Assembly: GCA_964016885.1 (NCBI GenBank)
Contig: OZ024742.1
Coordinates: 180,420,001 to 180,484,000, forward strand
Direction: 5' to 3'
Length of the DNA stretch: 64,000 nt
From: Eledone cirrhosa
Taxonomy: Eukaryota
A program made the position numbers and the translations under genes. Shown here one piece after another: positions 1,191 through 64,000 of the stretch. Numbering within the stretch: the first letter of the stretch is position 1; each line of letters starts with the position of its first letter. The notes under the pieces were generated by a model. The model saw nothing but the letters and a program-made list of their open reading frames with translations. It made no database searches and was not told where the DNA came from.

Positions 1191-1483
1191 TAGGACGAAA
1201 CATTGTTGGCTAATAAAGACTTTTGGTTTATTTTTTTTTAAATTCTTCGGCTCTGTTTAATTACATTAAGCTATATCTTATACTGTCATTTCTATAATAT
1301 GAAGAGGGTGTTTAACTACAACACACTCTAGTATTTTAATTCTTATATATATAGTTTTGCGAGGTTTTTCATATGAAATCGTGTGTCGAAACAAATATTG
1401 TTATACTTGGGGAGGGTCATAAAGCGAAACCCAACCACACAGTGAGTGTGTTCTTTTATTAATTCTGGCAATATTACACAAAT

Positions 1484-4400
1484 ATGACATTCCCCAAGTA
1501 TAACAATATTTGTTTCGACACATGATTTCATATAAAAACCTCGCAAAACTAATTCATCACCGTTATGGCATTAGCTTGTGCCAAGCTGAAAGGTTATTGA
1601 AAGACACTGTTTTCTGTTATATAAAAACTACAATAACAACAGAACAAATCCGCTTCTTAAAACACTGTGTTTCCTCCAAAATATACACAACAAACATATC
1701 AAAACAAGTAAATAATTTATTATTGAACAAATCACAAGCTGAACGACTAAAACACACAATAACAGTTAATATGAAAATAACAACATACACAAAATTCAAC
1801 GAACTTTACAGACAGAAACGCATTAACGGTAAGGAAGTCCGAAATCTCACCACGCCAAACGAGAGGGATAACTTCATGAGCGTCATCCGACGTGAAACGA
1901 AATACGCCCGAAACGAATGCAATAGGCACTTCAATAAGAAATTAGAATGGATGAATAAGAAAAAACTACTAGAAAGGAAAATAGAATATTCTCAAAAATA
2001 CCCAGATAACATCAACAATATCCGCATAACGGTTGTAAAACTACCGGAAGAATTTACCAATGACCACACAGTAAATATTTATGGGAACACTTTAATCAGT
2101 GAACAAGAACAACAAATCCTGCAGCTACCACCAAAATGTGCCATCTACAAAAAGATTAACCCTATGGAGTGCAAAACGGAGCTGGAAAAGTGTTTCACAA
2201 AAATATGCAAAGGTAAACAACAACAACAACAACAATAATAACGGTAGTAGTAATATAAACAATAACTCTGAGTATAGAAATAACAGCCAATAACAATAAC
2301 AATAGCAGGAAAGTGAGAAATAGTAATAATGGTAATGTAGTGACCTACATTCCGCGGGCTCACATACATTCTCTGTGCGTGATTTGGCTCAGTTCAGCCA
2401 ATCAGCGCCAGTAGAAGAGGATGTATCCCTACGCACCCTGAGGAAGAAATTCCCCGCGAAGATTTGAAGAATCTCTCTCTTGTACCGGAAACTTCAAGCC
2501 AGCAACACGCATAATGTAACGGTGAGATTTGCACCCTAGCCTCGCCGGCTTAACGGCGCAAAGGCACATTCCCTTTTGTAACCTCTTTGTATCTGTAACT
2601 TCAACCATATAAATAAACAAACATTTCATCTCTAATTACTGCTGTTGAAATCGTTGTTATGTTACTCGTGTCTCAATGAAATCTATAATCCATGCTGCTG
2701 GAATTGGCGACCTGACGAAAGGAATATTGTAAATAGATGGTAAATAGATCGAGGGACCTTCCCTCACGTCTATGTCAACAAGATAACCCAACGAGGATAC
2801 TATCACTGACCACACTGGCAACTAACAACCTTCAATCATCTACCCTGTTAAAGTGGCGACTACTCTATAACCAATAACTGCTAAAGTAATAATACTAACG
2901 ATAGACAGAACAACAACAACCACAACAATAATAATAATAATAGAAACGTTAACCACAGACACAGCAGGAGCGATCACAGTAGTAATAACGGTAACAATAC
3001 GAACAACAACAACAATAACCACAGTGGTAATAATGGAAATAATACATGTAGCAACATCAATGATAGACACAACAAAAACAAGAAACAGAATAAAAGTAAC
3101 AATCACAATGGTAGAAATAACAGTGACAACAACGATAACGGTGAAGTAAACAAGAATACATCTAGCAATCATAACAATAATAATAATGCTAATGATAGGA
3201 ACAACAACCACCATGATAACAATAATAGCAACACACACAACTATGACGATAGATATAATGACAACCCCTTAGAGAAACTATTTTTCAACCCAGCTGACAA
3301 AACATACAAGATGGGTAATATCTATCCTACGAGGTTACCCTTTAATAAAAGAGTTTGCATACCACAACAAATAGATGACGAGACAAAGGCACAGTTCACC
3401 ATAGCTAGAAATAAGATTAGACAAATAGTAGACAGGTATACTGAGAGACGGAGCAGACCAGAGGCCCAACAACTTGGGAGGAAACCTGTAGAAGGCTTGG
3501 TTAGCCTCAAGCAGCGCACATGGGATGGTGAGGTAGTATGTCTACCCACGGATAAGTCTGGTAGGATGTCAATAGATACCATGCCGAACTACATCAAGGC
3601 TATGCAACCCCACATCACCAACACGAACGAAATTGCACAACAAACACACGATGGGAGAGAGAAAATCCTCAACGCTCACATGATGATGTGGACTGACATC
3701 CTAAAGCCAAGTAGACGCACTGCCAACAACTTCCAGGCGTCTAACAATGGCATACCACCCTTCTATGGGCTCCGCAAAGACCACAAGACAATCGACGACC
3801 CGACAACAGGACCACCAACAAGACCCGTATGCGGAGCTAATATAGCTAGTAACTACAGGATCTCCTACTTCTTCTCAATGGTTATACGCCCCATAATCAA
3901 GATGTCCCCGGATGTATGTAACAGTACAGAGGACCTCCTCAGCAGAATCAGTGAGTGCAACAAAATCAGGAACCTATCCAACTGCATAATAGGCAGCATG
4001 GATGTGGTGTCACTGTACCCATCCATTAACATTGATTTTGCTGTGAAAAGATGTGTTGAGGTGATCATTGAGAGTGAGGTGGGGTTCTGCGACGTCGACA
4101 CAGACGAACTGGGCCTCCTACTTAGACTTACCTACGACACTGGCTACCTAGACAGCCATGGCCTTAGACGTTTCTGCCCTAGTAGAGCCATAAGAGGTAG
4201 ACCCCCCACCATAACCTCAATGGCAAAAAAGACTCCCATGGGAAGGTGGATTGGGTGGACCAAAGCTATACGGACCCCCCAAAACAATGATCAGGTAAGA
4301 AAAATGGTCGCACATGCAATAGGGGCTAGTATCAAAACTACCCTCAAGGGCCACATATTTAAGTTCAACGAGAAGATCTACACCCAAAATGAAGGAGCAG

Positions 4401-61395: not shown

Positions 61396-61580
61396 ATATA
61401 TATATATATATATATATATATGTATTTATATGTATATATATATATATGTATTTATATGTATATATATATATATATATGTGTGTATTTATATACATATATA
61501 TATATATGTGTGTATATACATATATATATAATATATGTATATATATATATATATATATATATATATATATATATATATAT

Positions 61581-64000
61581 ATTGTTATACTTTGGGAGGG
61601 TCATGTTGCCAATAAGAAACACACGCACCAGTTGCTTTCACTTCAATTTATTATATATTTATAAATTTATAAATTTACAAATCTACAAACCTATAAATTT
61701 CTGGTTGGTTGGTTGGTTCCACAACCAGATAGTTGTTTATATATAGTCATAGTCCTTTCGTCACACACTCTGTGACCTCTTCAGTGACTGGGGATTCCTT
61801 ACTTTGTTTCTGTGTCTTTCCTTTCTTCTGTCCTACGCCATTTTGTTTCTGTGTTTGTGTTGTGTGCTCAGTTTGCGCATACGCCACATCCGGGTGTCTG
61901 TGTGTGTTTGTGTTCATAGTATAGCTAAATCCGAACTTAGAAATATTATAGAACAGTATAGCAAGAAGCATAATAGAATAGAGGCCCAGCAACTGGGAGA
62001 AAAATCTGCAAATGGCTTGCGTAAGCTCATGCAGCGCTCACGTAATGGAGAGATAGCATGCTTTCCAACAGACAAGTCTGGCAGAATGTCGGTTGACAGC
62101 CTGCCAAACTACATCCAGGCAATGCAACCCCACATCACTAACACAAGAGAGGTAACACCACAGGAGCATGAGGATAGAGAAAAAACCCTCAATGCCCATA
62201 TGGTGATGTGGACGAATATAATGCAGCCCAACAAAAGGACTGCCAACAAATTCCAGGCCTGGAACAATGACGTGCCGGCGTTGTATGGGCTTCGAAAAGA
62301 CCATAAAACGGGCTGTGACCCTGTCGCGGGACCACCAACACGGCCAGTCTGTGGAGCTAACATTGCTAGTAACTACAGACTGTCCTACTTCCTCTCCCAG
62401 ATCATACGCCCCATCATTGAGATGTCCCCAGATGTATGTGACAGCACGGAGGACCTCCTCAGCAGAATCGGCGTGAGTAACCGATCTGGGGACCTAACAA
62501 ACTGCATAATAGGCAGTATGGATGTTGTGTCCCTGTATCCATCTATTGACGTGGATTTTGCTGTGGAGAAATGCGTAGAAATGATCAGCGAGAGCAAGGT
62601 TGAGTTCCGTGGCATTGATACCAGTGAGCTGGGACTTCTACTTAAGCTTACCCATAGTAATAGTTACCTAGACACTTATGACCTTAGCAACCTGTGCCCT
62701 ACAAGACCAGCAAGAGGCAGACCACCTACCATTACCTCAATGGCCAAGAAAACCCACACATATAGATGGAACGGGTGGACCAGAGCCATACGGACACCCG
62801 AAAACCACGATGAACTGAAGAAAATGATTGCACATGCGGTAGGGGCCAGCATAAAATTAACCCTTAAGGAACATATGTTCAAATTTAATGGTAAAACATA
62901 TGCCCAAGAGGAAGGAGCAGCCATTGGTGTTAGCATTGCAGGCGGCATAGCTAACTTATTCATGGTATGGTGGGACAGTAGACTTAAACAAAAGCTTAAA
63001 GAACAATTAGAAGACAGCTTAACCCTGATAATGTACTCCCGCTACGTAGATGATATAAACATCGTAGTTAAGACACCCCCACTAAAGAACAGTCAGGAAC
63101 TAGAGAAAAACACAATGGAAAGCATCCAGCAAATAGCAAACTCCATCCACCAGAGCATTAGAGTTACTATAGACTACCCAAGTAGACACCCCAACCATCG
63201 ATTACCTGTACTAGACACAGAGCTCTGGTTAGATACCATTAACAACCACAAACAAATCCTCCATTCCCATTACGCCAAACCCATGACTTCCAAACATCTG
63301 ATCCACCGAAACTCGGCCATTTCTGACCATACCAAAATCAACATACTGATTGCGGATGTGGTACGGGCGATGAGAAATGTGTCCCGCATGTGCAACCCCG
63401 AAGAACTAGAGAGACACATACAACACTTCATCCACCGTATGCAGTTCTCTGGCTACAATCAGAGAGATAGAAACAGAGTTTATAGAGGAGCCAGAACCAA
63501 ATGGGAAAAAATGGTAAATAATGACATAAATGGGACCTGCCCCTTGTATAGGAGCAAATTTTGGAATAGAATAGAAAGAACTAGGAACAAGGCCAATAGA
63601 ATAAACTCATGGTATGATAGCAATAAATACCAGAGTGTAATGTTCATCAATACAACCCCTAGAGGCGAACTAGCCTACAAATTTAGAAGGGCCCTAAATA
63701 AACATAAACTCAATAATAAGATAGTAGAATGACCAGGTACCTCCGTAAAAACACTTATTAGCAAGACATACCCGTTCCAAATACCCTCATGTATAGATAA
63801 GAAATGTATAACCTGTAAAATAAGCCCCCATATTAACTGTAAAACTAGAGATGTAGTGTATAGCATAAGATGTACTGAAGGACAATGTAGAAACAAAAAT
63901 ATAGTGTACATAGGTGAGACAGCTCGTAGTATAGGGGAACGAATAAATGAACACTGGTGAGACCTTCAAGATAATAAAGAATCATCTGTGCTCTACCAAC
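61581..64000 (+). mobile_element. PLE subfamily A': inverted pLTR (61581-~61915) joined to 5'-truncated RT/GIY-YIG ORF (~61916 to window end; TGA stops at 63730 and 63958)
   Basis: PTDKSG, LYGLRKDHK, SMDVVSLYPSI, YSRYVDD, VVYSIRC..YIGETARS; the first ~38 aa of ORF 61804-63732 are antisense pLTR. Confidence 0.93.

Follow-up and report, generated by a model that had tools for sequence, protein, structure and literature searches.

PLE insertions have a characteristic form, that is, partial tandems with pLTRs in which an inverted, 5′-truncated copy is located at the 5′ end (PMC8557442, PMC3846280, PMC2377424). The head-to-head form is their commonest arrangement, and it is accompanied by a tail at one end, hammerheads in the pLTRs and (TA)n targeting (PMC8557442, PMC3846280, PMC2377424). 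In rotifers, such pairs have ordinary target duplications of 9-10 bp (PMC3846280). The origin of the tandem and inverted structures has been named as unresolved (PMC8557442), and the proposals include self-priming (PMC3846280) and extension of both strands (PMC11167929). The Poseidon PLE protein of Anolis cleaves and extends both strands of AT-rich DNA in vitro, and its RT begins at two neighbouring internal sites in the 5′ end of the ORF, which bound the tail (PMC11167929); the searched passages of that paper do not discuss inverted insertions. In L1 twin priming, a second RT from the reciprocal DNA end followed by end-joining produces a head-to-head inversion (PMC11702581). PLEs have already been proposed as source and mobiliser of retrozymes (PMC7229834; bioRxiv 10.64898/2026.07.22.740005). 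A literature search, mostly without subscription papers or bioRxiv supplements, returned no test of two-ended priming on PLE or retrozyme junctions.

A single 64-kb stretch of Eledone cirrhosa DNA (contig OZ024742.1), hereafter the window, was analysed; about 15% of it is masked microsatellite. The original prediction placed eleven head-to-head junctions here and all were recovered by masked self-BLAST and alignments, with inverted arms of the same family meeting a few bases from the predicted positions (J1 to J6 at 1421, 7219, ~9911, 13883, 18237-18246 and 22650; J7 to J11 at 28042, ~38112, 40082, 55597 and 61917). ORFs and ribozyme cores are directed outward from the junctions, thus the pairs are head-to-head; at J9, which holds only the 3′ half of the ribozyme, the orientation was judged visually and by reference to a related single copy. 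Each junction is unique. As had been claimed, several PLE lineages and non-coding units are involved, namely Nematis-like, Hydra and Neptune-like elements and hammerhead-ribozyme units, and the inverted pLTRs match the published structure of EN+ PLE insertions. The head-to-head architecture itself is not new.

Families A and A2 provide four of the junctions and a solo copy:

1352..1421, minus strand: J1 left arm, a family A piece of 70 nt comprising the ORF start and a tail of 45 nt, which stops at a TA run of 10 nt
1421..6090, plus strand: J1 right arm, family A partial tandem PLE, ending at site 1 against (TA)n
9833..9911, minus strand: J3 left arm, 78 nt of A2 pLTR, terminating at site 1
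9911..10411, plus strand: J3 right arm, end of the A2 ORF with 3′ UTR, a hammerhead core at 10160, pLTR and 58-nt tail
14163..18236, minus strand: J5 left arm, a 4.07-kb pLTR-ORF-pLTR of family A, terminating at site 1
18224..18252, no strand: J5 junction, where a direct duplication of 13 nt spans a microhomology of 3 nt
18247..19867, plus strand: J5 right arm, C-terminus of the family A ORF, the pLTR with its hammerhead core at 19568, and a tail of ~55 nt
61093..61393, plus strand: single insertion, solo pLTR of family A with TA arrays on either side, terminating at site 1
61583..61917, minus strand: J11 left arm, pLTR of A2 carrying a hammerhead core at 61784, terminating at site 1
61918..64000, plus strand: J11 right arm, A2 RT ORF, continuing past the window

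Both families appear Nematis-like by motif likeness in their sequence: the linker has CX2-5CxxC, a short spacer and a CCHH finger which resembles the Nematis rows by eye, with DKG changed to DKS. The J1 right arm (pLTR end, broken RT/GIY-YIG ORF and a 3′ pLTR with a hammerhead core at 5848) and the J5 left arm are both pLTR-ORF-pLTR partial tandems. The motif scan gave hammerhead cores in A and A2, stem I of family A being weak. The A2 ORF has a sub-cutoff Pfam RVT_1 match, and a homodimer prediction for the N-terminal 230 residues of family A scored 0.00 with an uncertain fold, its alignment not being used. Five of the eight A/A2 ends fall on a single base (site 1) and three in a tail, which in the alignments of J1, J3 and J5 is the ORF start; the ends lie 24 nt and ~69-83 nt into the ORF. 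In all three complete A/A2 events, one end is at site 1 and the other in the tail, for which a hand calculation gives a probability of ~0.10 without coupling. The J5 right arm has stretches of 120 and 99 nt that are absent from the left arm, plus the tail, so the two are not nested either way. It has two pLTR alleles in common with the solo family A copy where the 3′ pLTR of the left arm differs, and three in common solely with the 5′ pLTR of the left arm. At one site, the J1 left arm has C, and both the adjacent right-arm copy and the solo copy have A.

Elements assigned to the Hydra clade by their motifs form J2 and J10 and three single insertions:

6290..7219, minus strand: J2 left arm, 930-nt inverted copy of a Hydra-clade PLE 3′ region
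7220..9598, plus strand: J2 right arm, 5′-truncated Hydra-clade PLE (RT C-half, CxCX5C linker, EN)
10512..11611, minus strand: single, internal Hydra-type ORF fragment between TA arrays
33930..35672, plus strand: single, 5′-truncated Hydra-type PLE, 5′ end directly on (TA)n
45189..45326, minus strand: single, J2-family 3′ fragment
55409..55597, minus strand: J10 left arm, 57 nt matching the right arm end and a 132-nt extension, a putative tail
55598..58715, plus strand: J10 right arm, a broken Hydra-clade PLE of nearly full length with RWK, DKT and CxCX5C, ending at ATAT-(CAT)n

RWK and DKT are present in the J10 right arm; J2 is truncated ahead of both, and homologues of its ORF carry them in 103/120 and 119/120 cases, respectively. 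The CxCX5C linker with the CxxC and CxH motifs of EN was found in the J2, J10 and 33930 translations, the last EN motifs of J2 being read by eye beyond a stop; the 10512 fragment stops before EN. The same motifs and (TA)n targeting characterise the Hydra clade (PMC8557442), including Hydra-1_Obim of Octopus bimaculoides, the comparison being one of motifs. The J2 right arm ends with the 3′ region and a 94-nt extension, again a putative tail. The J2 and J10 extensions have no match elsewhere within the window and did not score significantly as ORF starts (294/2000 and 160/2000 shuffles), in a test whose control failed too; they could be host DNA.

J6 is Neptune-like:

21535..22650, minus strand: J6 left arm, Neptune-like PLE 3′ region with a 54-nt extension
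22651..26433, plus strand: J6 right arm, Neptune-like PLE with GLKF, DKG, RT, CX4CxxC, GIY-YIG and 3′ region

The Neptune marks found are GxKF, DKG, the CX2-5CxxC linker and a long spacer to the CCHH finger, judged by eye against the rows of Fig. S2. GxKF, DKG and CX2-5CxxC occur in 107, 120 and 114 of 120 homologues, respectively, and the homologues carry PF00078 and PF01541. The Pfam GIY-YIG match of its EN and the RVT_1 match of A2 are the two hits among 30 ORFs in the window. RT shares one ORF with GIY-YIG, the latter at the C-terminus, as in EN+ PLEs, and every copy in the window is broken. As an ORF start, the J6 extension was equalled by none of 1000 shuffles in a post hoc test, and the tail is probably the ORF start. 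The motif scan found no hammerhead core in the 3′ regions of J2, J6 and J10.

The remaining junctions and singles are non-coding:

11907..12497, minus strand: single, a 487-bp unit present in 1.15 copies, with a hammerhead core and flanked by TA at either end
12912..13409, plus strand: single, non-coding unit, type I hammerhead at 13350
13721..14045, no strand: J4, tight palindrome of a non-coding unit, 7-nt centre, both arms ending at the same base
27063..28042, minus strand: J7 left arm, a hammerhead unit of 310 bp repeated 3.2 times, with unit position 100 as the 3′ end
28043..30897, plus strand: J7 right arm, the 310-bp unit repeated 9.2 times, with unit position 65 as the 3′ end and a blunt junction
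33541..33593 (plus strand), 37238-37333 and 60038-60093 (minus strand): singles, short J8-family copies with a common end site
37758..38112, minus strand: J8 left arm, a non-coding unit whose hammerhead core lies at 37945
38113..38623, plus strand: J8 right arm, ~1.15 J8-family units, ~65 nt past the end of the left arm
39941..40143, no strand: J9, the 3′ half of a hammerhead unit as a tight palindrome around a 2-nt centre
40560..41841, minus strand: single, a 659-bp unit with hammerhead cores, present as a tandem dimer that abuts (TA)n at its 3′ end

Hammerheads were identified with a custom motif scan (CTGANGA core); Rfam scans gave no hammerhead, only miRNA matches below gathering scores that are driven by microsatellites or hairpins. 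J7 contains 12 complete predicted type I cores with stems I-III and no ORF of at least 100 aa in the array interior. Its 12.4 units show one differing base, the arms are identical (0 substitutions/980) and the ends differ by a 35-nt one-sided tail. It thus consists, like non-LTR retrozymes, of non-coding tandem units of ~170-400 nt with a type I hammerhead each. J4 has a full type I hammerhead in each arm, at 13953 (plus strand) and 13813 (minus strand), and the J9 left arm is ~81 nt longer at its 3′ end, the extra part matching the end of the single copy at 11907. Retrozymes have at least two tandem units with complete hammerheads, and J4, J8 and J9 have about one unit or less per arm. The latter three seem to behave like retrozyme-type passengers and are not classed as retrozymes; they may also be solo pLTRs of unseen PLEs.

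Most insertions had been described as palindromic, with (TA)n on both sides; here "most" goes too far, and the arms seldom form true palindromes. By number, the inverted share is 11 of 21 recognisable PLE or ribozyme insertions, counted by PLE ORF, ribozyme or family homology with hand-drawn boundaries; by length it reaches 30,200 of 36,058 bp (84%). It becomes 11/23 if two unclassified tandem units are added (32014-32722 and 32820-33519, with no CTGANGA core in either), which enter this figure only. A palindrome at 59300-59581 and a SINE-like repeat pair at 48331-48670, which is head-to-head without TA, have no ribozyme or PLE homology and were kept out of the counts. The right end of J11 lies beyond the window, leaving ten complete events, and (TA)n borders both sides in eight of these, J1 left being included with just 5 TA units; the exceptions are J4 left (3 units) and J10 right (ATAT plus (CAT)n). 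Tight centres are confined to J4 and J9. In the others, one arm has 50 to ~3060 nt unmirrored at the junction by self-BLAST, and the J11 arms have no common sequence within the window. (TA)n is absent between the same-family arms at all 11 junctions, with a chance per junction of ~0.017 from the window's family mix. The combined figure of 4e-20 is inflated, as inverted self-matches served to find the junctions, and a junction of two families, one of them unrecognised, could escape such detection.

The outer ends are 35-132 nt apart in nine of the ten complete events, regardless of arm length. A binomial p of 0.011 for this assumes two equally used sites; a broad start zone would make unequal ends expected, and the value is not proof of coupling. 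The extension is on the shorter arm in five of the nine (J1, J5, J6, J7 and J10). By eye, several arm ends appear to overlap TA/AT by 2-4 nt. The arms are slightly diverged, as predicted, in 9/10 pairs (1.3-8% with indels; J5 3.0%, J2 30 substitutions/930), the identical arms of J7 being the exception; substitutions span 0/980 (J7) to 26/315 (J8). The scars at the junctions with known references are a 1-nt overlap at J1, 3 nt plus the 13-nt duplication at J5 and a blunt join at J7. Interruptions of the flanks keep a single strand polarity at J2, J3, J4 and J5, and J9 has 8 same-strand shared words versus 0 mirrored. The J6 flanks are ambiguous (14 versus 10), the J7 and J8 flanks carry no polarity signal, and a distant array left of J1 has the opposite polarity. 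A common RNA hairpin at the start zone was rejected, since three tail folds were no better than shuffles (z -0.29, 0.71, -0.72). Hammerhead cleavage as cause of the inner breakpoints was also rejected, since no junction lies on a predicted cleavage site; by eye, the J5 left arm starts ~7 nt downstream of one.

A head-to-head pair probably represents a single integration event, in which RNA primed twice, once per strand, gave cDNAs fused by end-joining. A PLE ribonucleoprotein would nick both strands inside a (TA)n tract and each 3′-OH would prime reverse transcription on element RNA, either a tandem or circular transcript or two molecules. Priming would occur within a short start zone at the pLTR/ORF boundary, at points usually differing by 35-130 nt, leaving a tail on only one arm. 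The cDNAs would stop at unrelated lengths and host end-joining would fuse them bluntly, across a microhomology of 1-3 nt or by way of a templated duplication. Extension of one end alone would give an ordinary 5′-truncated single copy, about equally often, and non-coding hammerhead units would be processed likewise in trans. The geometry, family identity, end positions, junction sequences and unmirrored flanks are observed in the window; both-strand cleavage and extension and the two RT start sites are taken from papers on one Poseidon PLE in vitro; simultaneity, RNA templates, the repair pathway and retrozyme mobilisation in trans are what we infer. In favour of two primings are the same-family arms without TA spacer, the offset ends, the A/A2 site use, the non-nesting of J5, the C allele of J1, the junction scars, the unmirrored flanks and the biochemistry of PMC11167929. 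The possible host origin of the J2 and J10 extensions, the arm divergence of J1, J3 and J8, the ambiguous J6 flanks, the opposite array left of J1 and the ~0.10 for one-of-each speak against it. More doubtfully, the reaction may be coupled, with one complex using both RT start sites, one per strand. The inverted copy and the tail would then be one event, and circular retrozyme RNAs integrated in this way in trans would give rolling-circle arrays on both strands, as in J7.

Another explanation is that one cDNA self-primes or switches onto its own strand, copies part of it and joins the other TA end. This fold-back, rather unlikely as a general account, is the likely one for J4 and J9 (2/10 events): two primings would require the cDNAs to end no more than a few bases apart (for each event, 1-9% if truncation is uniform), and the observed features are coterminal J4 arms around a 7-nt centre with 2 substitutions/159 and ATATAT after both ends, and a 2-nt centre with 1 substitution/59 in J9. 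It is possible for five further events, since the short-arm sequence is also inside the long arm at J1, J2, J3, J7 and J8; the loops would be short in three cases, with ~98 nt for J8, 60 nt for J1 as counted to the 5′ copy and, modulo the unit, 50 nt for J7, and self-priming has been proposed for rotifer Penelope palindromes, on an antisense template (PMC3846280). At J6 and J10, however, the long arms entirely lack the extension sequence, which, if element-derived, was not copied from them and has no source in a fold-back, and J5 would need extra template switches. Outer ends within 135 nt on arms of 0.35-1.6 kb have a probability of 6e-5 for five events under a crude uniform-stop null. Furthermore, short arms, long arms and solo copies terminate on the identical base, and the flanks are unmirrored. 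The predicted joining of two cDNAs at their truncated 5′ ends thus holds as the best fit for most junctions, with J4 and J9 fitting fold-back better. The cause proposed for it is not supported. (TA)n self-complementarity is neither required nor enough for inversion, given the rotifer pairs with 9-10 bp duplications (PMC3846280), the TA-less SINE-like pair and the 7/10 single-orientation insertions that have a TA tract at the 5′ end, yet are uninverted.

The arms could also have been inserted at separate times, the second at the 5′ end of the first, or neighbours could have lost a TA spacer later. The TA arrays of the window are hot spots, and the comparison of arm with family divergence, the refuting condition set with the prediction, has a mixed outcome over the five events that allow it, J1, J3 and J8 having arms no closer than the family; the arms of the SINE-like pair are 13.6% apart, its left arm being 4.4% from a third copy. 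But no TA spacer is present and the family is invariably the same, the J2 and J5 arms are closer to each other than to the family (J2 2/125 sites, against 8/110 and 13/127 to the third copy; this closeness would also suit fold-back), J7 is identical over 980 nt, and in rotifers a single target duplication surrounds the whole inverted unit (PMC3846280), which makes separate insertions quite improbable. Slightly less probable still is an artefact of sequencing or assembly (fold-back reads, TA-array mis-joins), or fold-back repair after insertion at (TA)n cruciform breaks. The identical J7 arms, with one variable base in 12.4 units, and the abundant microsatellite would suit it; against it are the divergence and indels of the other nine pairs, the J7 tail, the uniqueness of the junctions, and flanking arrays which are unmirrored where readable, so that mirror symmetry halts at the element ends. 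The events look like single integrations, not artefacts.

In comparison with known EN+ PLEs (Penelope/Poseidon, Neptune, Nematis, Naiad), the inverted copy is found likewise at the seven coding-family junctions, with the one-end tail identified as ORF start at J1, J3 and J5, probably so at J6 and putative at J2 and J10. The tails, published as 30-40 nt, are 35-132 nt here, several clades and non-coding units stand side by side, and target duplications are unreadable inside (TA)n. The start sites of Anolis Poseidon are non-homologous to the target (PMC11167929), whereas several ends here appear by eye to overlap TA/AT. L1 cDNAs derive from adjacent RNA stretches with gaps or overlaps of 1-10 nt (PMC11702581); unlike these, both arms here begin near the element 3′ end and overlap by 57 to ~1600 nt. 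The pairs thus differ from L1-type twin priming, in which the inner breakpoints lie within ~10 nt on the RNA. J1 is nearest to it, with a 24-nt overlap should the 3′ tail be the source of its left arm. A genome in which roughly every second insertion has two arms, across three clades and several passengers, is a natural test set, in which end offsets, junction scars and arm alleles can separate the models.

As in metazoan non-LTR retrozymes (PMC7229834; bioRxiv 10.64898/2026.07.22.740005), each non-coding tandem unit of J7 has a type I hammerhead. In the passages searched, neither source describes inverted arrays, tails or target sites; "inverted" has no hits in PMC7229834 and in the preprint occurs only in a reference title, with none there for "tail". 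J7, the least ordinary part of the window, appears to be a young 310-bp retrozyme array with the full PLE insertion signature. It strengthens the predicted link between retrozyme-like units and PLE machinery and supports, on the grounds of its sequence, PLE-driven retrozyme insertion. If J7 holds, the evidence that PLE enzymes insert animal retrozymes would be mechanistic, not phylogenetic, and if the coupled reaction is true, insertion scars would attest that PLE enzymes mobilise them. The preprint favours local tandem expansion, whereas J7 resembles a fresh insertion of near-identical units.

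All 11 head-to-head junctions of the original prediction (J1-J11 from left to right, each with a left arm on the minus and a right arm on the plus strand) were confirmed as inverted arms of the same family by masked self-BLAST and alignments, with 9,599 bp of the window masked as microsatellite. The ORFs and ribozymes of the arms point outward. A (TA)n spacer is missing at all 11 junctions, the exception being a unit-internal TA run just inside the right arm of J8. The window has a GC content of 32.5% and (TA)n arrays in dozens, and its Penelope-like retroelements (PLEs) and non-coding units are distributed as follows:

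Family A: J1 and J5; ~72% identical to A2; Nematis-like endonuclease linker, by eye against supplement rows of PMC8557442
Family A2: J3 and J11; ~72% identical to A; Nematis-like endonuclease linker, by the same comparison
Hydra-clade motifs: J2, J10 and two single copies
Neptune-like PLE: J6
Non-coding units: J4, J7, J8 and J9

According to a motif scan, J4 has full type I hammerheads in both arms, J7 has them at 12 positions and J8 in its left arm; J9 has the 3' half only. The PLE coding copies of the window are all broken. J2 and J6 have internal tandem duplications of 139 and 122 bp in their 3' regions (6447-6702, 9092-9348, 26003-26250), J2 in both arms and J6 in the right arm only. The right arm of J1 carries an insert of ~550 bp (2337-2885) with an apparent 5-nt flanking repeat; the J5 copy does not have this insert.

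That most insertions are inverted holds by bases (84%) but is overstated by events (11/21, or 11/23 with two unclassified units), the 21 events being the 11 inverted ones and 10 in a single orientation for which there is evidence from PLE sequence, ribozyme or family. (TA)n lies on both sides of eight of the ten complete events (J11 is incomplete in the window and is left out of such counts), but not to the left of J4 (three units) or to the right of J10, where ATAT-(CAT)n is found. Tight palindromes are formed by J4 and J9 only, whereas the remaining complete junctions contain an unmirrored stretch of ~50 (J7), 60 (J1, to its 5' copy), 98 (J8), 363 (J3), 1355 (J2), 1372 (J5), 2556 (J6) or 3063 nt (J10). 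The words "most" and "palindromic" are therefore to be softened.

Other repeats of the window were also recorded. A 280-bp homopolymer-rich palindrome, additional to the 11 junctions (59300-59581, perfect center near 59440, 7 substitutions in 133), is TA-rich on both sides, shows no ribozyme or PLE homology, and is either MITE-like or a twelfth fold-back event. A ~180-bp repeat, putatively SINE-like, forms a head-to-head pair at 48331-48670 with TA flanks missing; its arms are 13.6% apart, and the left arm differs by 4.4% from a third copy at 53522-53702. Two units of ~624 and 578 bp (32014-32722 and 32820-33519), each with a terminal direct repeat, lie between TA arrays, and despite their retrozyme-like layout the CTGANGA core was not found in them. 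Also between TA arrays, a segment at 30935-31536 looks, by eye, like an RTE-type LINE 3' end. A Hydra-type ORF fragment (10512-11611) has TA on each side and lacks both of its ends, through internal priming or through deletion via TA tracts.

The outer ends of the two arms are unequal in nine of the ten complete events, by 45 (J1), 94 (J2), 58 (J3), ~55 (J5), 54 (J6), 35 (J7), ~65 (J8), ~81 (J9) and 132 nt (J10); only J4 has equal ends (0 nt). In six of these events the extension is element sequence, namely the ORF start (J1, J3 and J5), a part of the unit (J7 and J8) or a stretch that agrees with the end of a related single copy (J9). Of the eight ends in A/A2, five share an end base 24 nt into the ORF (site 1) and three lie 45-58 nt beyond it, and every complete event has one end at site 1 and the other in the ORF-start tail. 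The J6 extension (21535-21590, minus strand) translates like the ORF start of the unrelated family A in 6/8 residues (0/1000 shuffles, post hoc), which would reflect either a start-zone motif common across clades or chance. These unequal ends are the one-sided tail of PLEs described in PMC8557442 and PMC3846280, the extensions of J2 and J10 being putative tails. The tail has been mapped to two sites at which a PLE protein starts RT, and this protein cleaves and extends both target strands (PMC11167929). Three short single copies of the J8 family (33593, 37238, 60038) share one end base, unlike either J8 arm end; this is a third start site. Within the right arm of J5, a short rearranged stretch (19813-19830) coincides exactly with site 1, the end point of other copies, and is possibly a template-switch scar.

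An artefact or later rearrangement is a most improbable source of the junctions. The arms differ at 30/930 (J2), 4/78 (J3), 2/159 (J4), 40/1327 (J5), 13/470 (J6, two blocks), 26/315 (J8), 1/59 (J9) and 1/55 (J10) positions, and the J1 left arm at 3/67 from the neighboring 5' copy. Divergence thus speaks against read artefacts for these arms, but it cannot clear J7 (0/980), the two ends of which are, however, in different registers. The mirror symmetry ends where the elements end. Interruptions of the flanking arrays show equal strand bias on both sides at J2, J3, J4 and J5, and the J9 flanks have eight same-strand words in common and no mirrored ones, which fits one array split by insertion; the J6 flanks are ambiguous (14 same-strand vs 10 mirrored words), those of J7 and J8 are uninformative for polarity, and an opposite bias is seen in the large array that lies 165 nt to the left of J1. 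Independent insertions are highly unlikely as well, although the comparison of arms with their families was mixed. The arms are closer at J2 (2/125 sites, vs 8/110 and 13/127 to a third copy) and J5 (3.0%, vs 3.5-3.8% to J1), where, with A2 as outgroup, five derived sites unite the arms against two and zero for other pairings; those of J1, J3 and J8 are no closer than outside copies, and J4, J6, J7, J9 and J10 are without an outside copy in the window. This comparison cannot decide the matter, as dissimilar arms would also be expected from a pair of RNAs that stem from different source loci.

Fold-back is the better fit for J4 and J9, and J1, J2, J3, J7 and J8 are compatible with it and with two-ended priming alike. 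As a general explanation, it is nevertheless rather unlikely. J5 cannot be a simple fold-back in either direction, nor can J6 and J10 if their extensions are element-derived. The terminal-repeat (pLTR) alleles of J5 form a mosaic, and three of them are common only to its right arm and the 5' pLTR of its left arm. Two-ended priming is the simplest account and probably the main route: reverse transcription of RNA would be primed twice, once per nicked strand, and the two truncated cDNAs would then be fused by end-joining. Among the joins with a reference, that of J7 is blunt, that of J1 has a 1-nt overlap and that of J5 a 3-nt overlap together with a duplication of 13 nt; the 7-nt center of J4 sits in a 10-nt word found again 50 nt away in the unit. 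Scars of this kind point to microhomology-mediated end-joining; the J5 duplication could instead be later slippage.

Two-strand priming with joined cDNAs is plausible and partly anticipated in print, but the causal role given to the self-complementarity of (TA)n is not supported. Twin priming of L1 is described in PMC11702581. Seven of the ten single-orientation insertions have a TA tract at the truncated 5' end (unit-internal in one), so insertion into (TA)n does not force inversion; nor is (TA)n needed, since rotifer copies have 9-10 bp duplications. The symmetry may help by providing, on each of the two strands, a position to cut and (by eye) 2-4 nt of pairing.

J7 is, by sequence definition, a non-LTR retrozyme. 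It has 12.4 units with variation at one base, its head-to-head arms both sit on (TA)n, and one arm has a 35-nt tail; such a layout would be expected if reverse transcription had started at both DNA ends and run round a circular RNA. PLEs are proposed as retrozyme mobilizers in part of PMC7229834, and pLTRs as the origin of retrozymes in part of bioRxiv 10.64898/2026.07.22.740005; a term search of PMC7229834 and of the preprint's main text found no passages on inverted arrays or tails. What makes the window valuable is that it offers a dense natural test set, together with one young retrozyme array that bears the PLE signature.

In octopus, families of Naiad and Hydra use (TA)n as their target (PMC8557442, in section 11 and supplement rows). 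PLEs were recently active in O. vulgaris according to passages of PMC13282606, among which nothing on inverted architecture was found. For the ORF at 61918, the best relatives with a name are Octopus vulgaris proteins (70-71% identity), which points to a probable octopus host. A long asparagine-rich stretch within the family A ORF (2885-3260 and 16850-17330) is reminiscent of N-rich inserts that the Penelope ORFs of rotifers carry (PMC3846280), and the N-terminus of the O. vulgaris homologue P0001 is likewise of low complexity. In D. virilis, the commonest form is a tandem flanked by inverted repeats (in passages of PMC2377424). The junctions are genuine, and for PLEs they are nothing out of the ordinary.
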